Of a DNA stretch of 64,000 nt, positions 5,869-64,000 are shown piece by piece (positions within the stretch are counted from its first letter, which is position 1; each line of letters begins with the position of its first letter). The DNA comes from Candidatus Daviesbacteria bacterium RIFCSPHIGHO2_01_FULL_41_45 (GTDB lineage Bacteria; Patescibacteriota; Microgenomatia; Daviesbacterales; UBA10151). The stretch is taken from NCBI GenBank assembly GCA_001776975.1, contig MFCS01000025.1:37407-101406 (forward strand), given 5' to 3'. A program made the translations under genes and the position numbers. A model generated the notes under the pieces. The model was not told where the DNA came from, did not search any database, and saw only the letters and a list, made by a program, of their open reading frames with translations.

Positions 5869-6076
5869 TAATAATTTAGCACTTATATTACGTTAAAACC
5901 ATGACAAAGTATATTTTAGTAAAATAACTTCCTCCTTGAGTGTCTACAAGGTGTTTCCTTGGAGCCTCAACACTACAAAATTATTAAATCCTATTCCAAC
6001 GAGTGCATAACAACACCTACGAAAATGCTTTATACACTAAAGAGTATAAGTAATGAAATTTTATCCCTCTATATTC

Positions 6077-8764
6077 TTAAACTAAGGAAACTTTCAAGCT
6101 TCGCCTATAAATCATCTTTCTAATTTCCTCAACAATCACTATTGATGAAGCAACTGGTATTATTATCAGCCAATCAGATAAATCAAGGGCTGTGGTGCGT
6201 AATATTTTTTGCATGAATGGTGTGTAAATAGCAAGCAGTTGCAGGACAATAACAGTTAAGGTAGCCCCAATCAAAAACTTATTTGAGAACGGATTTAACT
6301 GAAAAATAGACTTGCTTTCATGCCGACAGTTCCAAGCATTAAACCACTGGAAAGCTGCTAGGACAGTTAAAGAAACTGTCCACGCTTTAACCATATCAAC
6401 CTGATAGTACCCTTTAAAAAGAAACAATGTTCCGACCATCATAGGTATTGCCATTAAAAACATCCTTTGTATGACTAGGCCATCAATGAGGTATTTCTTA
6501 GGACGTTCGAACGTACCTTTAAGCAAACTTTCTTCTTTTGGTTCCATAGCTAAGGACACATCAAGAAATCCATCAGTAACAAAATTCAACCAAAGTATTT
6601 GTGCTGCTAAAATCGGTAGGGGTAAACCTAAAAACAATGCTCCTGTTATAGTGAGTACCTCTCCAAAACTGGTTGAGAACAGATAAAGGATAACTTTTTT
6701 AATAGTTTTATAGATACTCCGTCCCTCTTCAATAGCTGCAATAATGCTAGCAAAATTGTCATCAAGTAAAACTATATCTGAAGCCTCTTTTGCCACCTCA
6801 GTACCAATCTTACCCATGGAAACCCCTAAATCCGCTGCTACCAGTGACGGAGCATCGTTTACCCCATCTCCAGTCATAGCTATAACTTCCCCCCGTTTTT
6901 TGTACCCTCTGACAATCTTTAATTTATGCTCTGGTGTAACCCTGGCAAAAACAGATACTTTATCAAGCATATCTGCAAATTCATCATCAGACAGAGAGTC
7001 TATATCTTCTCCCGTAAGAATGGTATCTCCTTCATGGTAAATACCAGCTTCTCTGGCTATAGCTTCTGCTGTGATCTTATGGTCGCCAGTTATCATTACC
7101 ACTTTAATTCCAGCGGAGATAGCTTTTTGCATGGCCTCATGAACTTCCGGGCGTAGGGTATCTTTTAATCCAAAGAAACCTACAAAGGTAAGTTCTTCCA
7201 CATCCTTAAGTTTAATATCACCACTGACATTACCTTTCAAAGCAAAGGCCAGAACCCTTAGCCCTTCCTGAGACATTTTGACTAACATTGCCTCAAGCTC
7301 TTTTTTCTTTTCTTGGGATAAAGGATGAGGCTTACCTTCATGCCATATTTTAGTTGTTAATTCTAAAATCTCCTCAGGAGCACCAAGAACAGTTAAATCA
7401 ATAGTTCCATGGATCTTATGTGAGACAGCATGATATTTATTTTTATAATCAAACGGTATCTCAGAAAGTCTGGGAGACTCTTTTTCTAAAATATCTTTGT
7501 GAAATCCCACCTTTCGAGCAAAAACAGAGAGTGATGATTCTGTTGGATCGCCAGTCGCCTCCCACTCCCTGCTATCTTTATCAAAAACAACACTATTATT
7601 AGTAACAAAGGCTGCCAACTTTCCTGCTAAAAGTAACTCTGGATGATTGAGAGGGTCAATTTTATCATCATTTAAAGTTACCCCTCCTTCTGGTTTATAT
7701 CCCTCACCCTCTATTTTGAATGTTTTGCCATCAACATAGACTTCTTGCAGTAATATCTCATTTTTAGTAAGAGTGCCTGTTTTATCAACAGCAATTACTC
7801 TAGCTTGTCCTAATGCTTCAACTGCCTGAAGTTTTTTAACCAAAGCATTACGCTTACTCATCCTCCAAACGCCTGTGGCTAGAACTAGCGTCATCACAAT
7901 AGGCAGTCCTTCTGGAATGATAGATACTGCAAGGGACACAACAGTGGTAAACATCTCCCTTATTGAATGGCCCAATAAAATTCCCAAGACAAATATAGAA
8001 GTACAAATAGTAGCTACAGTGATAATAATTAGTCTGGTTAGATAGCGGATATTGGCTTTAAGAGGTATTTCTGTATTGATAACAGCAATTTCTTTAGAGA
8101 TTTTACCAAGTACTGTTCCTAACCCTGTGGCAACTACAACAGCTCTTCCGTTGCCAGCCACAATATTTGTTCCCTTAAAAACCATATTTCTCTGGTCAGC
8201 AGTTGGTAAATTTATGGTGGACAATACCTCATCAAATTTATAAACTGGCTGGGATTCACCAGTCATGGCAGCTTCATTAACTGTCAGGTTATTTGATTCA
8301 ATTATTCTGGCATCTGCTGGAACCTTTTCTCCTTCCTGTAAAATTATTACATCCCCAGGTACAACCTCATAATCAGGGATTACAAGATCTTTTCCATCAC
8401 GAATAACCTTTGTATTAGTTTCTGCAAATTTTTTAAGTGCAAGCAGTGTGTTTTGTGCTTTACCTTCCTGGATTGTGCCAACTATGGCGTTAAAGAAAAG
8501 TACAAACAAAATAATGGAACCATCAATAAACTCCTTCATTAAAAACACAATTAAACTGGCAACAAAGAGGATATAAATAAGCGGGCTTTGGAACTGCCGA
8601 AGAAAGATAATTAACAAACTGTCTACTTTTGCATCTGGTAACTTATTTAACCCATACTTTTCAAGACGTTTTTTTGCTTCATCGGATGATAATCCATCTG
8701 CACTTGAGTCAAGAGTCTCAAAAACTTCTTTTGTCGTTTTTGAATAACCAGCATCTTCCAACAT
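6077..8764 (-). CDS. P-type cation-transporting ATPase (type II, Ca2+/Mg2+-like)
   Basis: DKTGTLT phosphorylation motif, TGDGVNDAPSL hinge, MITGDH, 895 aa with about 10 transmembrane segments. Confidence 0.92.
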   Translation of the reverse strand: MLEDAGYSKTTKEVFETLDSSADGLSSDEAKKRLEKYGLNKLPDAKVDSLLIIFLRQFQSPLIYILFVASLIVFLMKEFIDGSIILFVLFFNAIVGTIQEGKAQNTLLALKKFAETNTKVIRDGKDLVIPDYEVVPGDVIILQEGEKVPADARIIESNNLTVNEAAMTGESQPVYKFDEVLSTINLPTADQRNMVFKGTNIVAGNGRAVVVATGLGTVLGKISKEIAVINTEIPLKANIRYLTRLIIITVATICTSIFVLGILLGHSIREMFTTVVSLAVSIIPEGLPIVMTLVLATGVWRMSKRNALVKKLQAVEALGQARVIAVDKTGTLTKNEILLQEVYVDGKTFKIEGEGYKPEGGVTLNDDKIDPLNHPELLLAGKLAAFVTNNSVVFDKDSREWEATGDPTESSLSVFARKVGFHKDILEKESPRLSEIPFDYKNKYHAVSHKIHGTIDLTVLGAPEEILELTTKIWHEGKPHPLSQEKKKELEAMLVKMSQEGLRVLAFALKGNVSGDIKLKDVEELTFVGFFGLKDTLRPEVHEAMQKAISAGIKVVMITGDHKITAEAIAREAGIYHEGDTILTGEDIDSLSDDEFADMLDKVSVFARVTPEHKLKIVRGYKKRGEVIAMTGDGVNDAPSLVAADLGVSMGKIGTEVAKEASDIVLLDDNFASIIAAIEEGRSIYKTIKKVILYLFSTSFGEVLTITGALFLGLPLPILAAQILWLNFVTDGFLDVSLAMEPKEESLLKGTFERPKKYLIDGLVIQRMFLMAIPMMVGTLFLFKGYYQVDMVKAWTVSLTVLAAFQWFNAWNCRHESKSIFQLNPFSNKFLIGATLTVIVLQLLAIYTPFMQKILRTTALDLSDWLIIIPVASSIVIVEEIRKMIYRRSLKVSLV

Positions 8765-53461: not shown

Positions 53462-54853
53462 CTAGTTTAAGGCGCAATATTGCAAATTGCCTCTGTAAGC
53501 ATCTCTTCGCAAAACCGCGGTTGGCAGATAATCAAATAATAAAACGGCAGCAGCAAAATCAATAAACGGATCGCCTCTAACTACCTGACGATTTAAATTA
53601 ACAATCCTACCTCTTAAAAAATCATACCTATCACCTCTAGTTCTTGATTCATATTCCCTAATTCCACTATATCTACCTAGTTCATTTAATCTAGTATGAG
53701 CATAGACTAGGTAGGTCGGCAAGTGCGGGCTAAGTAGAAAATCCCTCCAGGAATGAGCCTCTTCATCTCTACCTTTTTCAATTAAAATACTAAAATCAAC
53801 TCCTCTGGCAAACGATTGAGTGACGTTGTCCGGACTACCTCCAGGCATATCAGCAACCACTAAATTATTAAACACCCTGGCTTTATTTAAATCTGTCACA
53901 CCTCTCGCTATTAATTGATCATTCCATCTTAGATTTGGGTTTCTGATAACTGGTTGTGGGCGAACTATTGATTCAATTGTTGGTGAAACTAAGTCTAAAT
54001 CAACTACACATACCTCTATATCATTCGGGTTAAATATTCCATCGCTGGCACAGTGGTAAATTAAATCTTTGGCAGATGATACGAGTGAGGCTGCAGTTGT
54101 ACTCTTGCCGGAATGGGGTGACCCACCAACAACCATCACAAATCTCTGACCTTTAAGTAGCTTACTTTTACCCCGATCTAATGCAAAGATAGCTTTTTCA
54201 TAACTATTACCTCCATCATCAAGAGTTTTAATTCTGGGGACTGTAAAATCAGTTGGGATATGTTCCAATCTGGGGTACCTAACTGGTTTCCGTAAATTAT
54301 CTCTGCTCTGACTATTATTTAATTCAACAGGAAATTGCATGATAGATCTTAAAAAATTATCGGAGGGAAGTGAATATAGGCTACCTAGAACTTGGCTTGC
54401 ATCTACATATCCAGCAGATGGAATGCCAAAATTAGCTAAAAGTTGTCTAGCTAATAATTTTGAGAGATACCCATGCTCTGGCTTGAGATTTGGTAGGGAA
54501 CGGATTCTCCACCACTCATCTTCCCTCAACCTACGGAACGGCTCCAAGGCCAAGGTTATCTGTCTTAAAGATGCTCTATCTTGTCTAGACAAGGGGCTTT
54601 CTTTAATTATCCCTTCCAATACTCCCGGATTAAGATAATCTATCTCTATATTACCCTCTCCAGTTTTAAATAACGGAATGGCCTCAGCTAATAATCCCCT
54701 GCTAACTCTTTTATCAGCTCGAATAACTAGCTCAGCCTGTGGGGCAATTACTCCTAATTTTTCCAAAACAAATCCGGCGATAACAGCAGAAGGGCTAAGC
54801 TCATCTAAAATTAAAACTTTATTAAAAGGGCCGGGAAACTTTCTTTCTTCCAT
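53462..54853 (-). CDS. Uncharacterized P-loop NTPase (463 aa)
   Basis: Walker A VVGGSPHSGKSTTAASL. Probable Walker B VCVVDLDLV. No further family-level match. Confidence 0.55.
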   Translation of the reverse strand: MEERKFPGPFNKVLILDELSPSAVIAGFVLEKLGVIAPQAELVIRADKRVSRGLLAEAIPLFKTGEGNIEIDYLNPGVLEGIIKESPLSRQDRASLRQITLALEPFRRLREDEWWRIRSLPNLKPEHGYLSKLLARQLLANFGIPSAGYVDASQVLGSLYSLPSDNFLRSIMQFPVELNNSQSRDNLRKPVRYPRLEHIPTDFTVPRIKTLDDGGNSYEKAIFALDRGKSKLLKGQRFVMVVGGSPHSGKSTTAASLVSSAKDLIYHCASDGIFNPNDIEVCVVDLDLVSPTIESIVRPQPVIRNPNLRWNDQLIARGVTDLNKARVFNNLVVADMPGGSPDNVTQSFARGVDFSILIEKGRDEEAHSWRDFLLSPHLPTYLVYAHTRLNELGRYSGIREYESRTRGDRYDFLRGRIVNLNRQVVRGDPFIDFAAAVLLFDYLPTAVLRRDAYRGNLQYCALN

Positions 54854-57670: not shown

Positions 57671-57726
57671 TTTCTATTCTAGCTTCTTTAATAATTTACT
57701 CATTTTAAAGTATAATTTCTATGCTT

Positions 57727-57797
57727 AGGCCTGTCGTTCAATGGTAGGACAGCGGTCTCCAAAACCACTAACGAGGGTTCGATTCCTTCCAGGCCTG
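57727..57797 (+). tRNA. tRNA-Trp (anticodon CCA)
   Basis: Acceptor AGGCCTG/CAGGCCT, anticodon stem GCGGT/ACCAC (one C-A mismatch) with loop CTCCAAA, T-arm GAGGG-TTCGATT-CCTTC. Confidence 0.75.
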
Positions 57798-57799
57798 CA
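57783..57799 (+). repeat. 17-bp direct repeat, copy 1 (the 3' end of tRNA-Trp)
   Basis: ttccttccaggcctgca, identical to 57938-57954. Confidence 0.8.
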
Positions 57800-57937
57800 G
57801 GTTTCAGGTTCTCCAATTTATTGGAGGTTCTGAAAACTGCTGGGAATGAATATTAAGCGAAACCTCCCTGAGGGTTTACATAATTTCGAACTTGTGAGAA
57901 ATTACAGGATCGTTTGCCGAAGGCAAAGGTAGCCCTC

Positions 57938-57954
57938 TTCCTTCCAGGCCTGCA
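57938..57954 (+). repeat. 17-bp direct repeat, copy 2 (att-like duplicate of the tRNA-Trp 3' end)
   Basis: ttccttccaggcctgca. Preceded by the hairpin gtttgccgaaggcaaagg. Confidence 0.8.
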
Positions 57955-58073
57955 ATCTTATATACATATGCTCTTCTTGCTTGACTCAGAGGATCCAATA
58001 GTCTAGAATCTAAATTGAGGCAGAGGGCTTGACCCTGACCCCATTATTGCACCTGCATAAAGTGGAAGATGCC

Positions 58074-58454
58074 TCACCAAAGTACCATCAGAGAGTAAAA
58101 ATATTTCTGTCCTTCAAAGTTCTTTGAGCGGACCACGACTTTTATTTTTCTGCCTCCAATATATCCACTAAAAGCAAAGTAATGTCCAATTTTATCTTTT
58201 CTGTGTTCTTGAAAAGTTTGAGCAGTTTCCAACATCTTTCTGGCTAACGGTAAAATAGCAAACCTTTCCATTTGCTCAACCTTGGTTCGTTTATGAGGCG
58301 GATTTATTAAGTGATCCCAGCCTGATCTAGTTACTAATATTTTCTGCTTAAAAGCTGGTGTTGGTTTTTCATGGCCCGACCAATAACTAAAATAATACAT
58401 CTTAGCTTTTCTTCTCGCTCTATCAAACTTACTAACTCTTTTACCTTTGGGCAT
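58074..58454 (-). CDS. Hypothetical basic protein (126 aa)
   Basis: ORF only (MPKGKRVSKFDRARRKAKMYYFSYW...). Confidence 0.45.
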   Translation of the reverse strand: MPKGKRVSKFDRARRKAKMYYFSYWSGHEKPTPAFKQKILVTRSGWDHLINPPHKRTKVEQMERFAILPLARKMLETAQTFQEHRKDKIGHYFAFSGYIGGRKIKVVVRSKNFEGQKYFYSLMVLW

Positions 58455-58617
58455 ATCTGGATTATATCTAAATTTCGAGAAATCGAATAGACTTCTGGTA
58501 AACTAAGTTAGGGAATTTGATATTTTCAGTCCATTTAGAAGTTCGGAAATCATCAACTAGTCCCTGCAAAATAGTCCGATAGTTAACAAAACAAATCATT
58601 ATGGTATAATTCTTCTC

Positions 58618-59187
58618 ATGGAAGTGGAATACCAGTACCCACAAGTCCAATCTCAAACTAGTCATGCTTCTAAGGACGCAGTTCAACTGGCTGCTTTTAG
58701 AGAGTTAGTGCATGGCCTTCAAATGATGTCCTCTAATTTAAAGCCGTTACTTTATAATTTTGCCTGGGCAGCAGGACAAATTGCAGGAGACCCAGATGCT
58801 CCAGCAAAAATAAGAGGAATGATGGAATTTGCAGCTGCTTACCATCAGTTTGGTCTAGAAACCGCAATGGATGCAATCGGAGACAATAATGGTGTTCGTG
58901 TAGATATTATGTCCGGACAAGATGGTAGAGATATAAGTTACAGACCAGGTATATTAGTTGGACTAGTTGGGGTTGAGCATTCTTTAGCAACAAGGAGAGT
59001 AGATTTTGATGGAGTAGCAATGATAGAAGATAACAGAGGAAGGGATAGGTTTATAGCAGTTACAATAAGTCCAAACGGATCTACTCAACTACATCGTGAG
59101 CAATATGATTTTCACAAACCTGATCTAATTTCCGATAAGCCAATAGAAGAAATTTTTCCTCCTACAACTAGATGTAAACCACTTTAA
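58618..59187 (+). CDS. Hypothetical protein (189 aa)
   Basis: ORF only. GC content is above the local average. Confidence 0.45.
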   Translation: MEVEYQYPQVQSQTSHASKDAVQLAAFRELVHGLQMMSSNLKPLLYNFAWAAGQIAGDPDAPAKIRGMMEFAAAYHQFGLETAMDAIGDNNGVRVDIMSGQDGRDISYRPGILVGLVGVEHSLATRRVDFDGVAMIEDNRGRDRFIAVTISPNGSTQLHREQYDFHKPDLISDKPIEEIFPPTTRCKPL

Positions 59188-59370
59188 AAATTACAACCTC
59201 GATACATCCACTGTAAATTAATTGGTATGGACAAATTTTATATCTTTAGTAAAATGGCACTAATGGAAGCCGAGGCTATAAGAAGAATGGTTGATATTGT
59301 CTAACGAGCCGAACAGGATGGAATCCAACCAGAAAGATATATTCAGAAGATTATCCAAACAGCAATTAGA

Positions 59371-59592
59371 TTGAGTAATCCTTTTGTAAGTCTAGGTGAT
59401 AAATTTGTAGTTTTGGGCTTTGATGGTTTTAATAGAACCATCTTCCCTTGTGGCTCGTTTAATTCCGCCGATGAGGCTCGTTCTTTTGCTATATCAAAAA
59501 CTCAAGAGGAACCCCAATACTCTGATGACCAAGTCCTGTCAACAACCTTCTATGCTTTCACAATCGAAGGAACCCACATTCCATTGGAATGA
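59371..59592 (+). CDS. Hypothetical small protein (73 aa)
   Basis: ORF only. Confidence 0.3.
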   Translation: MSNPFVSLGDKFVVLGFDGFNRTIFPCGSFNSADEARSFAISKTQEEPQYSDDQVLSTTFYAFTIEGTHIPLE

Positions 59593-59620
59593 GAGGACTC
59601 AAAAACAACCGGGATACTAG

Positions 59621-60151
59621 CTAATATAACTTGGGGTTTTTGAAGGGGATTAAAGCCAAGATCATGGCTTGTTCGTAATAAGTTGTCCTGGTAATAGTAT
59701 CATTTGTTAATATACCTACCGCACCATTTGCTTGTTTCGAATTAGTTCTACCAAAAACAATATCATCTGCCTCCCCTAATTCTTTACCTTGTTTAATTAA
59801 TTCAGTCACTTTTTTAGGCAGGTAAAACGATGCCGTCCGACCTTTCCCTATTTTACCATTTTTAGCTTTAACCACTATCCAAGCAAAGGCTTCCATCTCA
59901 CGACCTACTTCCTGCAAACCACCCTCTATCCCTACCCAGTAGTCAGAGGTGGGTTTTAATTTAGAAACGTTTTCTACTCTATTGATGGCTCCCTTTAATG
60001 TCTCCTCCTCACTTAGTGGTTGATCTGAAACATTTGACGGGGTAGATTCTCCTTCGATTTTAATCAACATTTCTGGGAACATCTTTGCAAATCCAATCTC
60101 AACAGCATTTATCTTCACTGGATTAGTTGACGCCACAAATACCTTTTTCAT
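59621..60151 (-). CDS. Inosine/xanthosine triphosphatase (YjjX/NTPase_I-T family)
   Basis: VFVASTNPVKINAV...SDQPLSEEETLKGAINR...DYWVGIEGG...ELG...NGAVGILT...ALIPFKN. Confidence 0.8.
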   Translation of the reverse strand: MKKVFVASTNPVKINAVEIGFAKMFPEMLIKIEGESTPSNVSDQPLSEEETLKGAINRVENVSKLKPTSDYWVGIEGGLQEVGREMEAFAWIVVKAKNGKIGKGRTASFYLPKKVTELIKQGKELGEADDIVFGRTNSKQANGAVGILTNDTITRTTYYEQAMILALIPFKNPKLY

Positions 60152-60158
60152 TTAATAA

Positions 60159-61175
60159 TTACTTCTTAAAAGCCTCAATAATATCTTTTTTAACTTCACC
60201 GGTACTTTTTCCTTGAAACTCAAATCCACAAGCATTAAAATGTCCCCCTCCAATACCCCCAATTTTAGACAGCTCCTCTGGTAGGTTTATTAAATTATTT
60301 TTGCTCCCCCGGCAAGAAACACTGACTCTGCCATGATTTTTTTCCCGAAGCACAATTCCTCGGTCATAACCCTCAATCGAGGTAGAGATTTCGCTATTAA
60401 AAATATTTTTTATCATTTTTTGTTGATCTTCATTAAATCCTGATTTTTTAATCTGCTCAAAAGACAGGTCTAAAAAAATAGTTTTTACCTCATCTGAAAA
60501 TTCTAAATTTTGAATAATCCAGGAAAGTAAAAATAAATAATCTTTAGATTTTGAGGAAAACATTTTGTGAATAAGAGTTTTATTATCTGCTCCAAGTTGG
60601 ATTAATTTTGCAGCCAACATCAATGTTTTATCAGTAAAGGCCCACTGAAAATTTCCAGTGTCTCCCATTATTGCGACATAAGCCAGGGTGGCTGTTTTAT
60701 CATCTAAAAAACTTGGGTTAACAACCTGATCAAGTAAAACCTCCATTGTTGATGAGGCTTGAGGATCATGAATAATTAATTTACCCAACTCCTCTGTCCT
60801 ACTTGAATGATGGTCTATATGAATCCTCTTGGGATAAATCTCTAAGTTAGGTGGATTCTCTTTTGTTTCATCAGTATCATAATATTGAGTTAAACTAGAT
60901 CCATCTAAAAATATTAGCGTATCAGCATTTCTTTTTGATAAAATTTCTCTGCTATCTTGTTCTATTATCTCATCAAAATATGGTAAAAAATTATTAGCCT
61001 GTTTTTCCTGCTCGGTTAGTTTTCTGGGGAACATTAACATAACTTCTTTATTTAAACTTTCCAGATATTTTTTCAAAACTAGTCCGCTACCAAGACAATC
61101 AAGATCCAATGGGTCAGAGGAGATTACCAGTATTTTCTGGTCTCCTTGGATATACTCCAGAAATTTATTATTCAT
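60159..61175 (-). CDS. nrnA: DHH/DHHA1 phosphoesterase (NrnA-like nanoRNase/pAp phosphatase)
   Basis: DHH motif in IHIDHHSS, DHHA1 GGGH motif in IGGIGGGHFNACGF. Confidence 0.8.
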   Translation of the reverse strand: MNNKFLEYIQGDQKILVISSDPLDLDCLGSGLVLKKYLESLNKEVMLMFPRKLTEQEKQANNFLPYFDEIIEQDSREILSKRNADTLIFLDGSSLTQYYDTDETKENPPNLEIYPKRIHIDHHSSRTEELGKLIIHDPQASSTMEVLLDQVVNPSFLDDKTATLAYVAIMGDTGNFQWAFTDKTLMLAAKLIQLGADNKTLIHKMFSSKSKDYLFLLSWIIQNLEFSDEVKTIFLDLSFEQIKKSGFNEDQQKMIKNIFNSEISTSIEGYDRGIVLREKNHGRVSVSCRGSKNNLINLPEELSKIGGIGGGHFNACGFEFQGKSTGEVKKDIIEAFKK

Positions 61176-61215
61176 ATTAGGTTATAATTGTAACAGAAGG
61201 AGGTGAGAAAATTAA

Positions 61216-61413
61216 ATGTGCTTAAATTGTGGGTGTAATATGATGAGTGATGATATGGGTAACCCTAAAAACCTCACCTTAAAAACGTTAGCGGAGGCAG
61301 CTGTGGCTGGAAATGATGGTAGCGCTCAGGATTTATTAAGTAAAACTAAGGAGGCTTTAAATAACCTATCGACTGAGGATCTACAAAAAGAGATTGACTT
61401 GCAAACTAGTTAG
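61216..61413 (+). CDS. Small hypothetical protein (65 aa) with an N-terminal CxxCxC
   Basis: Strong SD (AAGGAGGTGA) 8 nt upstream. MCLNCGCNMM... Confidence 0.5.
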   Translation: MCLNCGCNMMSDDMGNPKNLTLKTLAEAAVAGNDGSAQDLLSKTKEALNNLSTEDLQKEIDLQTS

Positions 61414-62000
61414 GACCTAAATTTTTGTCTGAACTCGTCAGCTGTAAGCCAGATGGGTTCAGGCAAATTTTGATACTTGGGATTTTTAACTGCCCTAATA
61501 TCCCCGCCTGTTTCTACTAAATAATAAGCTAGTCCTTGTTGTTTTTCTATTGGTTCGTAATCTGTTGGAGTATGACCTGTTCTCCAATTATCAAAAGAGA
61601 TTAGAGGCACACTGCCAACATTACTCCAAGAGTGACCCCAATTCGGATTAATTTCAATCTCATCTCCAGGTTTAGCTGTGATTAAGTAAACCTCCTCAAC
61701 CTCATCAAGCTGCAACTCTCCAGCAATCACTCTTTTTTTTTGCATCTGTAAAATACCCTCACCTGCAACCAGATGATAAACTTCCACTGGTACCCCATTT
61801 GGGTGATAGTGACCAAAAGTTTTGGGGAACTCCTGACCTAACTTTCCTGGAGCAATAACAGTACAATTCTCCCATCCATCAGCTGGCGGACTATTACTGA
61901 CCTCCTTAAATACCCAATAGACAGGATCAACCCCCTCAAGTTCTGGATCTTTTAAAACTAACTTCATCCCCGATAGCTCTCTCACCGATCCAAGTTTCAT
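61410..62000 (-). CDS. Cupin-type glucose-6-phosphate isomerase (archaeal-type cPGI)
   Basis: TFGHYHPNGVPVEVYHLVAGEG metal-binding signature of the cupin PGI family. Confidence 0.7.
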   Translation of the reverse strand: MKLGSVRELSGMKLVLKDPELEGVDPVYWVFKEVSNSPPADGWENCTVIAPGKLGQEFPKTFGHYHPNGVPVEVYHLVAGEGILQMQKKRVIAGELQLDEVEEVYLITAKPGDEIEINPNWGHSWSNVGSVPLISFDNWRTGHTPTDYEPIEKQQGLAYYLVETGGDIRAVKNPKYQNLPEPIWLTADEFRQKFRS

Positions 62001-62059
62001 TACACCATTAGTTTACCACTTAACATAACTGCCACAATAGTGTAGATTAATGGTTATCG

Positions 62060-63355
62060 ATGACTCAGCCTTTTACCCTAGTAATCTTTGGAGTAACTTC
62101 CAACCTAGCTCAAAAATATCTCCTCCCAGCTTTATATGACCTGGAAGATAAAGGCTTATTGCCAGATGGCTCACATATTATTGGTATTGCCAGGTCTCCC
62201 CAAAAAGAAGGTTGGATCCAAGAACACCTGCACCAAATCCTTCACAAAGAGAATCTTCATCACAAACATGAGATTAAAGACCAAATTAAAGAGTTATTAT
62301 TTACAAGACTACATTATCTTGATGGACACCTAGACAACCCCGATTTTTATCAAAAATTAAAAATTAAACTGGATGGGTTAAACTCCCAAAACATCATCTT
62401 CTATCTAGCAACTTACCCGGATTTATACCAGCCTATTTTTGAAAATCTGAAACTTTCTGGGTTAAGTAATTTAGCAGATGGGTTTGTCCGCTTGATGATT
62501 GAAAAACCTTTTGGAAGTAATCTTAAAACTGCTAAGCAATTAAATAAGACTCTCCATCAATATTTTAAAGAAGAACAAATTTATAGACTAGATCATTATT
62601 TAGGCAAAGAGGCTTTAAGAGATATTCTTAGCTTCCGCTTCGGATCCTCTTCAGTTGAATCAATCATCAACAAAGATCATATTGATCACATCCAGGTCAG
62701 CGCCACTGAGAATTTTGGGGTAGGTGAGCGGGGTGCATTTTATGATAAAGTAGGAGCCTTAAAAGACGTTGGTCAAAACCACTTATTACAAATGTTAACC
62801 GCTGCCACTATGGAAAAGCCGATAACCTTCACTAACGAAGAGGTTACTAAAGAACGGGTTAAAATTTTAAAAAAATTGCTTCCCCAAAAGGAAAATATAA
62901 TTTTTGGACAATATGAGGATTACACTGCAGAAAAAAATATCTCTCCTGATTCTTTAACCGAAACTTTTTTTGCGCTAAAAACTTTTATTAATAATGACCG
63001 TTACCAAAATGTACCCATTTATTTACGGGCGGGTAAGAAATTAGCTCAGACCTTAACTGAGGTGACGATCGTTTTTAAAGATAAAAAGAACCAGCCTCTC
63101 AGATACCACGTTCATTCTCAAAGAGATAATTTTTTAGTCCAAGATCCATACGAAGCGTTGATATTGGATGCCATCCGTGGTGACCAAACCTACTTTAATG
63201 ATGTACAAGAGGTTGAGGCTCAATGGGCTTTCACAGACCCCCTCTCTGCCGAGTCCGAGAAAGGCATACCTGTAATTTACCAACCAGGTTCTTGGGGTCC
63301 CCAAGAAGCGGATGAATTAATAGAACAAGACGGTAGACACTGGATTAATTTCTAA
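62060..63355 (+). CDS. zwf: Glucose-6-phosphate 1-dehydrogenase
   Basis: N-terminal NADP motif (IFGVTSNLAQKYLLPALYDL), EKPFGSNL, RLDHYLGKE. Confidence 0.92.
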   Translation: MTQPFTLVIFGVTSNLAQKYLLPALYDLEDKGLLPDGSHIIGIARSPQKEGWIQEHLHQILHKENLHHKHEIKDQIKELLFTRLHYLDGHLDNPDFYQKLKIKLDGLNSQNIIFYLATYPDLYQPIFENLKLSGLSNLADGFVRLMIEKPFGSNLKTAKQLNKTLHQYFKEEQIYRLDHYLGKEALRDILSFRFGSSSVESIINKDHIDHIQVSATENFGVGERGAFYDKVGALKDVGQNHLLQMLTAATMEKPITFTNEEVTKERVKILKKLLPQKENIIFGQYEDYTAEKNISPDSLTETFFALKTFINNDRYQNVPIYLRAGKKLAQTLTEVTIVFKDKKNQPLRYHVHSQRDNFLVQDPYEALILDAIRGDQTYFNDVQEVEAQWAFTDPLSAESEKGIPVIYQPGSWGPQEADELIEQDGRHWINF

Positions 63356-64000
63356 GATTTCTTAACCGAATGTCCACCAAACTTACCCCGCATTGCTGAG
63401 ACAGCCCGGTTTCTAATGTTATCTGGGTCATGTACTGAGTGTACCCGCACCTGAAACGACTTATCAATCACCGGAGCATCGACATTTAATTCCTTAGCGG
63501 TTTTGATAGTCCACTCACCCTCACCGGTATGCCCAATAGTAGAGGAGTACTCTTGTAATTTTGGATCCTCTGCCACTGCTTCTTGCAACCAACCCACTAA
63601 GCGGGACTCCACCACCGAGCGTTTATTATAAAGCTCCATCACTTGAGATAAATTAAAATCAAAATTAGAGCTGTCTAGGATCATCGCGCCCTCCGCTATA
63701 GCCTCCATCATCCCATATTCAATACCATTATGAACCATCTTGGCAAAATGACCGGCTCCAACTTCTCCTAAGTGAGCATACGCCCCAGGAGCTGCTGCTA
63801 ACTTACACAGTTCTTCTACCTTCTCAAAGTCTTCTTTTTCTCCTCCAATCATCAAACAGGCTCCGTTTCTTGCCCCGCTAGGCCCCCCTGATGTGCCAAT
63901 ATCCATAAAATGAATACTCTTAGAACTCAACCTTTTATTTCTATCAAGCGTATCCTTGTAAAACGAGTTCCCGCCATCAATTATTAAGTCCCCTGGTGCA
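63352..64000 (-). CDS. gnd: 6-phosphogluconate dehydrogenase (decarboxylating)-like. 5' end lies outside the window.
   Basis: HFAKMVHNGIEYGMMEAIAEGA. Translating upstream of the track ORF gives APGDLIIDGGNS (GDIIIDGGNS motif) continuing to the window edge. The track start at 63930 is an internal Met. Confidence 0.8.
   Translation of the reverse strand, partial: APGDLIIDGGNSFYKDTLDRNKRLSSKSIHFMDIGTSGGPSGARNGACLMIGGEKEDFEKVEELCKLAAAPGAYAHLGEVGAGHFAKMVHNGIEYGMMEAIAEGAMILDSSNFDFNLSQVMELYNKRSVVESRLVGWLQEAVAEDPKLQEYSSTIGHTGEGEWTIKTAKELNVDAPVIDKSFQVRVHSVHDPDNIRNRAVSAMRGKFGGHSVKKS

Follow-up and report, generated by a model that had tools for sequence, protein, structure and literature searches.

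The 64-kb stretch of DNA analysed here (the window; contig MFCS01000025.1) carries an intact tRNA-Trp gene whose 3' end is repeated exactly, over 17 nucleotides (nt), a short distance downstream, and beyond the second copy lies a conserved protein gene convergent with a gene for a predicted small RNA. The repeat pair is taken, with a probability of roughly 0.55, to flank what was once a site-specific insertion in tRNA-Trp (T-loop/3' end), to which the protein and RNA genes would be separate neighbours. These two genes are themselves interpreted, more tentatively, as an undescribed RNA-protein module distributed across the Candidate Phyla Radiation (CPR), in which a RelE/CdiA-CT-like RNase would be partnered by a structured RNA of ~60 nt. 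The names of the sources of the closest homologues point to a Candidatus Daviesbacteria/Microgenomates host (CPR/Patescibacteria). Loci retrieved for comparison are designated by L numbers.

A repeated tRNA-Trp 3' end downstream of the intact gene

The repeated sequence, TTCCTTCCAGGCCTGCA, occurs exactly twice in the window when up to two mismatches are allowed (copies A and B, Table 1), whereas 100 shuffles yielded no copy at all. The duplication reported in a first-pass annotation, which had been made from the sequence alone, was thus found to be exact and far beyond chance expectation. In terms of the tRNA, the repeat comprises nt 59-60 of the T-loop, the 3' strand of the T-stem, the 3' acceptor strand and the discriminator G, followed by CA. 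Copy B lies downstream of the intact gene and in the same orientation, the distance from repeat start to repeat start is 155 bp, and the repeats are exact and end sharply. The tight hairpin that had been described ahead of copy B is also present (TTTGCCGAAGGCAAA, 57913-57927).

By the principle on which Islander is based, a regenerated intact tRNA gene (tDNA) together with a displaced end fragment marks a tDNA island (PMC4383910), and Patescibacteria are reported to harbour genomic islands and prophages (PMC12455944). The window shares with such islands the intact tRNA, the exact 3' fragment located downstream in the same orientation, the block of identity extending from the T-loop to the gene end, and the use of the same tRNA in different lineages. 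If an insertion took place, the incoming DNA would have supplied a replacement 3' end (copy A), thereby displacing the original one (copy B), with a tyrosine integrase as the probable agent. A later deletion of the interior would have left 138 bp between the repeats, and the 155-bp unit would then have been fixed in the population. The unit 57783-57954 would be what such a deletion left or, alternatively, a miniature element without an integrase, and the displaced tRNA fragment would represent an ordinary case of an already known kind. The empty junction expected on this reading is GGTTCGATTCCTTCCAGGCCTGCAATCTTATATACAT, and the expected circle junction is GGTAGCCCTCTTCCTTCCAGGCCTGCAGGTTTCAGG.

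Elements that have kept their attachment (att) sites and lost their integrase are known, including the cis-mobilisable elements (CIMEs) associated with streptococcal integrative and conjugative elements, and partial tRNA repeats occur in Prochlorococcus islands and tycheposon arrays. The window unit resembles CIME-type remnants in that it is small, lies at a tRNA hotspot and has kept both att-like repeats but no recombination genes. On the other hand, it is far smaller than the CIMEs described, has no known partner able to mobilise it and resides in a CPR host.

Several observations weigh against a former insertion. No integrase family of Pfam is annotated within ~10 kb on either side of the repeats, as the first-pass annotation had already remarked, and the pair encloses only 138 bp with no cargo; the 155 bp measured here compare with the 2-200 kb required of Islander islands. 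An empty-site or excision variant was not found among five same-species contigs from different samples, all of which carry both copies and are identical over 57701-58100. The comparison of occupied and empty sites that had been recommended therefore yielded occupied sites only, and tRNA-Trp differs in the sole partly syntenic genome, L015. Moreover, no intact autonomous element carrying this att or the 138-bp spacer was detected in 22 tRNA-Trp loci inspected by eye or in IMG/VR, which sets the unit apart from both Islander islands and CIMEs. The stable folding of the spacer, considered below, leaves room for a function. Taken as a signature of integrase-mediated insertion, the duplication stands as regards its orientation, position, extent and recurrence in three other lineages, and falls short as regards the integrase and the size of the enclosed DNA.

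Recurrence of the duplication in other lineages

Metagenomes of the JGI were scanned with the 22-nt 3' part of the window tRNA-Trp as query, which returned 22 loci. One of them (L077) belongs to the same organism, and three other CPR lineages possess a partial duplicate of the 3' end downstream of an intact gene (L076/L065/L072, L075 and L074; Table 1). The left edge of the repeat is A58 or T59 in the T-loop in three of the four cases, the window included. The sequences enclosed at the four duplicated sites, ranging from 107 bp to 1.34 kb, show no homology to one another, and the duplications may therefore be regarded as independent events at one recurrently used site. Thus, tRNA-Trp has the appearance of a hotspot at which insertions recur and small scars remain. 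This would mean that tRNA-Trp has been hit repeatedly in Microgenomates and that CPR genomes trim insertions to scars of ~100-200 bp.

No obvious integrase was seen within 4.5 kb downstream of tRNA-Trp in the 22 loci, the translations having been judged by eye and not by profile search; by the same inspection, the open reading frames (ORFs) in these regions resemble glycosyltransferases, Fic proteins, methyltransferases and others. All four duplicated cases lack an integrase and three of them are shorter than 250 bp, which would be unexpected under random decay and is a further point against insertion followed by loss of the interior. Duplications that have lost one of their repeats escape detection in this type of scan.

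Among the retrieved sequences is a 153-kb viral contig (L062/L085; Ga0163144_10000165 = IMGVR_UViG_3300015360_001243) carrying a tRNA-Trp(CCA)-like gene, the 3' half of which is identical to CPR tRNA-Trp and which is followed by an apparent part of a second tRNA gene. This contig may represent a CPR phage with its own tRNA-Trp.

Alternative origins of the repeat pair

The region beyond copy B could in principle belong to a tandem or degraded island, in which all of 57800-59620 would be old integrated DNA and copy B would be the junction between a newer 138-bp element and an older one. The older element would carry the protein-RNA module, a conserved gene termed ORF189 and a pseudogene, and would have lost its distal att and its integrase. 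Tandem arrays are known at tDNAs (PMC4383910), and the genes concerned are lineage-variable, since the context of the module differs in each relative, ORF189 is rare and placed elsewhere, and the third gene is disrupted by a stop codon. In addition, the genes that separate the module from tRNA-Trp in L015 are entirely different, as are those that separate it from G6PD. Nevertheless, a third copy of the repeat is absent from the window, and the search for a degenerate one was equally negative because the tRNA aligns locally to 57955-64000 no better than to shuffled sequences. The GC content is that of the surroundings, and matches to phages, plasmids, IMG/VR, PHROG and PADLOC are lacking. The module also occupies an equivalent place in L015 (G6PD to tRNA-Trp/rpmG), so that its arrival with an element is unnecessary. 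A tandem island is accordingly considered unlikely, and the same observations argue against the earlier proposal that ~1.8 kb of ORFs downstream of the repeats constitute an island, as all of these ORFs lie outside the repeat pair.

An origin without any integrase appears slightly more doubtful than that. Illegitimate or short-homology recombination might, for example, have replaced tRNA-Trp with a horizontally acquired copy and its trailer, leaving behind the last 17 nt of the old gene. The tRNA-Trp genes following rpmG in the two partly syntenic genomes (57727-57798 in the window and 11121-11195 in L015) are entirely different in sequence, which suggests that the gene has been replaced in one of the two lineages, and both the tRNA-Trp-like gene of the viral contig, with its identical 3' half, and the lack of an integrase in any of the four duplicated cases would fit such a process. 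However, a left edge nearly common to three lineages is the pattern of a site-specific crossover, and the exact and sharply ended repeats likewise speak for the insertion reading.

Least probable is that the spacer and copy B form a structured tRNA trailer or decoy co-transcribed with tRNA-Trp, as a processing or regulatory element that might tie tRNA-Trp to the downstream small RNA: the spacer does fold more stably than shuffled sequence (z = -3.3), its junction TGCAGG is complementary to CCTGCA of copy B, no intrinsic terminator is predicted between tRNA-Trp and the small RNA, and L074 and L075 also show a GAA-loop hairpin 10-13 nt ahead of their copy B, but the spacer sequence is not conserved between lineages, varies widely in length, has no match in Rfam and is found in one species, with no further copy elsewhere in the window or among the fetched loci. 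A group I intron in the tRNA gene or a split tRNA was also rejected, because no intron covariance model matched at E up to 10 and 138 nt is too short. The tRNA group I introns described in Patescibacteria are located at position 35/36, in the anticodon loop (PMC13011429).

A conserved protein with a predicted RNase fold

The first gene beyond the repeats encodes a protein of 126 amino acids (aa), which the first-pass annotation had counted among four "ORFans". It was found to have 36 clusters of homologues in Microgenomates with 50-90% identity, nearly all of them 126 aa long and with 25 invariant columns. A pattern scan of GTDB species genomes returned 44 loci, including relatives of ~30% identity in Parcubacteria-type lineages, Woesebacteria, Peregrinibacteria and metagenome-assembled genomes labelled Saccharibacteria. 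Beyond these, a distant subfamily of 159-aa proteins comprises at least 643 clusters across the CPR, with 70-86% mutual identity, all of which are annotated as "hypothetical" and have no Pfam domain.

The AlphaFold2 model of the 126-aa protein (pLDDT 92) is predicted to adopt a BECR fold of the RelE/CdiA-CT type. As in the RNase toxins with this fold, such as the type II toxins RelE, ParE, YoeB and HigB and the CdiA-CT tRNases (e.g., that of Klebsiella pneumoniae 342, PDB 6CP9), helices precede a four-stranded antiparallel sheet in the model. The protein further resembles these toxins in being small and basic, in its invariant His, Arg, Lys and Glu residues, and in being encoded by a stand-alone gene that changes its contexts. 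Six residues (His48, Arg56, Arg64, Glu83, Lys103 and Lys105) are invariant across both subfamilies and are compatible with a catalytic site. An RNase function is thus suggested by the predicted fold and these residues.

The only family match in Pfam is LPD3 (PF18798), which is sub-threshold (20.8 bits, E 4.5e-4, versus a gathering threshold of 27 bits); a member of the 159-aa subfamily scores 17.1 bits, and some homologues have a precomputed weak LPD3 match. LPD3 is an uncharacterised domain of the polyvalent proteins of phages and conjugative elements, where it is sometimes found beside predicted BECR RNase domains (PMC5512222). No match to RelE, ParE or any other toxin family was obtained for the protein in Pfam, NCBIfam or PADLOC. 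A gene for an adjacent protein antitoxin or immunity protein was not found, the neighbouring genes being different in every genome compared.

Upstream of the gene, a TATAAT box (58461-58466, minus strand) lies 6 nt ahead of the ATG, and the mRNA is probably leaderless. The same spacing of 6-7 nt between TATAAT and ATG is seen at both this gene (58455-58466) and ORF189 (58583-58617), as well as in the genes of this family in relatives; the mRNA of ORF189 is probably leaderless, too.

Public contigs containing either subfamily are mostly ~1-3 kb long, and some stop 15-160 bp past the gene (L012-L014). The highly conserved module seems to interrupt assembly in much the way that rRNA genes do.

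A predicted convergent small RNA gene

The ~60 nt located right after the stop codon of the protein gene are more conserved than the coding sequence itself in the Daviesbacteria-type loci, among them the window. On the opposite strand, this segment is preceded by -35 and -10 boxes, which are separated by 17 nt in 12 of 12 Daviesbacteria-type loci in spite of a variable spacer sequence. Analysis of these loci by RNAalifold gave a consensus structure with 19 pairs, three of them with compensatory changes. One pair (31-49) is U.G in 11 of the 12 sequences and would be C.A on the other strand.

A comparable arrangement was observed in the 159-aa subfamily, where 33 of 36 loci show, in this order, the protein gene, a hairpin with U-runs on both strands, a near-invariant element of ~56 nt and a TATAAT-like box. 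When read opposite to the protein gene, this element can fold into two hairpins, of 4 and 7 bp, that are closed by a 7-bp outer stem, a three-helix topology shared with the Daviesbacteria-type RNA. Of 594 cells, 99.8% are paired, and two pairs show double compensatory changes. It also contains 50 G.U cells that turn into C.A mismatches when read on the protein-coding strand. As the G.U pairs would be mismatched on the other strand, an RNA encoded opposite to the protein gene is supported.

The relationship between the two RNAs is less firm, which weakens the idea of a single CPR-wide module. A covariance model built from the RNA of the 159-aa subfamily detected divergent members at the same position and on the same strand, with many compensatory substitutions (L056, E 2e-13; L053, E 3e-8). 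Applied to the Daviesbacteria-type loci, it did not find the window RNA and scored 13.7 bits (E about 0.6) on L011 and L012, where position and strand were correct; these matches being sub-significant, the model was rejected as proof of homology. The case for homologous RNAs is therefore based on their position, strand and topology. Neither the window RNA nor its counterpart in the 159-aa subfamily has a match in Rfam.

Such a conserved small RNA, tightly linked to a putative toxin gene, recalls the toxin-antitoxin (TA) systems with RNA antitoxins, namely type I (txpA/RatA) and type III (ToxIN). Like the convergent, 3'-overlapping type I pair txpA/RatA, the Daviesbacteria-type RNA is antisense to the 3' end of the mRNA. 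However, type I toxins are small membrane peptides, whereas the proteins considered here are predicted to be soluble alpha/beta proteins of 126-159 aa. Type III antitoxins consist of tandem repeats located upstream on the same strand, unlike the single three-helix unit on the opposite strand found here. A further difference from known TA systems is seen in the 159-aa subfamily, where a bidirectional terminator is all that the RNA and the mRNA have in common.

Most likely, if the two genes act together, the RNase would be held in check by, or would act with, its cognate structured RNA. The module could be a new RNA-antitoxin system or a small housekeeping ribonucleoprotein of reduced bacteria. 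The family beside the scar is very large, highly conserved and unannotated, with a predicted RNase-toxin fold, and its linked RNA is supported by covariation and absent from Rfam. Should they form a functional pair, it would be either an RNA-controlled toxin of a new architecture or a ribonucleoprotein specific to the lineage.

Genomic context of the proposed module and its relation to the probable scar

The module spans ~540 bp, and the genes next to it differ in almost all genomes, for example in L009, L011, L012, L015 and L084. In L082, whose protein is 90% identical to that of the window, it lies beside genes for an RRM protein and a DEAD-helicase; the orthologues of these genes (73-85% aa identity) are present at 8.8-11 kb of the window without the module. 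The only partly syntenic genome, L015, has the module between G6PD and tRNA-Trp/rpmG as in the window, but its tRNA-Trp is quite different and is set apart from the module by other genes over 4.7 kb. In phage (INPHARED), plasmid (PLSDB) and IMG/VR sequences, neither the protein nor the RNA was found.

In 6 of 45 loci, versus about 0.37 expected, the small RNA is preceded on the same strand by a tRNA gene whose end lies no more than 300 nt away; as the loci are phylogenetically related, this proximity is only suggestive. Besides the window, these are L048, L053, L057, L047 and L037 (tRNA-Arg, tRNA-Arg, tRNA-Gln, tRNA-Gln and tRNA-Asn, respectively), with gaps of 84-298 nt. Without the 155-bp unit, the gap in the window would be 62 nt, the closest gaps elsewhere being 84 nt (L048) and 100 nt (L053). 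The linkage could be due to co-transcription, a preferred insertion site or inherited synteny. A duplication of the tRNA 3' end was not detected beside the protein family at the other tRNA-linked loci (no matches of at least 11 nt), and the module is absent from the other duplicated tRNA-Trp loci. Therefore, the scar and the module are regarded as neighbours and not as one element. Given that the module relocates between close relatives and tends to lie just downstream of tRNA genes, it might use sites of the kind that carries the tRNA-Trp scar.

In several Daviesbacteria-like genomes, the module is flanked by an intergenic repeat of up to ~55 nt ending in ...CCACCTCCAAAAACTC (Table 1). This repeat also occurs between other genes (Fic, TspO and M23 peptidase), always on one strand, and may be a cassette boundary or resemble repetitive extragenic palindromic (REP) sequences. 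As cassette ends of the module, the CCACCTCCAAAAACTC repeats were rejected, because they are a general intergenic repeat of the L009, L011, L019 and L020 genomes and are absent from the window.

L015 has a promoter-like stretch (6498-6545) situated downstream of the module and ahead of an ORF read as dcd. The window has a stretch of 81% identity to it (58458-58505) upstream of the 126-aa gene, which implies a local rearrangement around the module.

Table 1. Positions of the features described in the window and at comparison loci
Feature	Locus	Position	Strand	Remarks
Sigma-70-like promoter of tRNA-Trp	Window	57688..57716	+	TTAATA-17-TATAAT; ends 10 nt ahead of tRNA start
tRNA-Trp (CCA), intact	Window	57727..57798	+	ARAGORN; Rfam tRNA 54.6 bits; CCA end not encoded
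Direct repeat copy A, attL-like	Window	57783..57799	+	Exact 17 nt
Spacer, unique, hairpin-rich	Window	57800..57937	+	138 bp; hairpins 57802-57835, 57881-57904, 57913-57927
Direct repeat copy B, attR-like displaced 3' tDNA fragment	Window	57938..57954	+	Exact 17 nt
Small RNA promoter	Window	57981..58009	+	TTGACT-17-TAGAAT
Predicted small RNA core	Window	58016..58076	+	7-bp outer stem around two hairpins; overlaps stop codon of 126-aa gene
126-aa conserved protein	Window	58074..58454	-	Predicted BECR (RelE/CdiA-CT-like) RNase fold; structure model
72-aa ORF, probably spurious	Window	58468..58686	-	Uncalled in 4/4 public assemblies of the organism; overlaps ORF189 promoter and start
ORF189, 189-aa conserved hypothetical protein	Window	58618..59187	+	Promoter TTAACA-16-TATAAT, 58583-58610
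Stop-disrupted gene, ~115-130-aa family	Window	59227..59592	+	In-frame TAA 59302-59304
159-aa subfamily, example	L037 (of L023-L058)	Protein 5992-6471; RNA 6467-6561		Opposite strands
tRNA-Trp 3'-end duplicate	L076/L065/L072			ATTCCTTCCAGGCCTGC, 17 nt; ~1.36 kb apart; encloses 72-aa ORF and methyltransferase-like ORF
tRNA-Trp 3'-end duplicate	L075			27 nt with one mismatch, reaching 10 nt beyond the tRNA; ~124 bp apart
tRNA-Trp 3'-end duplicate	L074			13 nt; ~219 bp apart
CCACCTCCAAAAACTC repeat sites	L009	7951-7979, 8513-8545		
CCACCTCCAAAAACTC repeat sites	L011	7952, 8491, 11228, 11806, 13084		
CCACCTCCAAAAACTC repeat sites	L012	6408, 7941		
CCACCTCCAAAAACTC repeat sites	L019	771		
CCACCTCCAAAAACTC repeat sites	L020	5923, 6498		

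Gene order and the other downstream ORFs

The four ORFs named in the first-pass annotation are all present, and the description as ORFans did not hold for three of them. In addition to the 126-aa gene with its 36 close clusters and hundreds of distant ones, ORF189 has four clusters of homologues (51-66% identity) in unrelated contexts, which indicates a narrow and patchy distribution. It has no family match in Pfam, PHROG, PADLOC or NCBIfam; its structure model is of low confidence and the fold search was uninformative. The 73-aa ORF at 59371-59592 corresponds to the C-terminal two thirds of a longer gene of a protein family. In phmmer searches with this ORF, the matches reach only the C-terminal ~70 aa of longer proteins, and the alignment of the complete gene to two of them (P0043 and P0045) continues across the in-frame TAA. 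Since the similarity spans this stop codon, the gene is a pseudogene or a truncated gene.

A phage or plasmid origin of the ORFs, for which a search had been recommended, was rejected for lack of any match in INPHARED, PLSDB, IMG/VR, PHROGs and PADLOC. The somewhat higher GC content attributed to the region could not be confirmed either, as the values over 57.7-59.6 kb (0.35-0.42) are indistinguishable from those of the flanks. These ORFs are most plausibly regarded as lineage-variable chromosomal genes that form a patch (a relocating module, a rare gene and a pseudogene) and not as demonstrable island cargo.

The overall gene order comprises two tRNA-Thr genes, rpmG, a 184-aa ORF, tRNA-Trp, the region studied here, and the genes for an NTPase (DUF84), a DHH phosphoesterase, GPI, G6PD and 6PGD. 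The NTPase gene (59621-60151) marks the restart of housekeeping genes after the small, variable and partly decaying patch. A second contig, MFDC01000005.1 (assembly GCA_001776755.1), matches the window, the same sequence having been assembled from several metagenome samples. Minor strain or assembly differences were noted close to the locus: the 184-aa ORF of the window has 177 aa in the same-species assembly L001, and a 463-aa ORF (53462-54853) is split there into genes of 282 and 145 aa.

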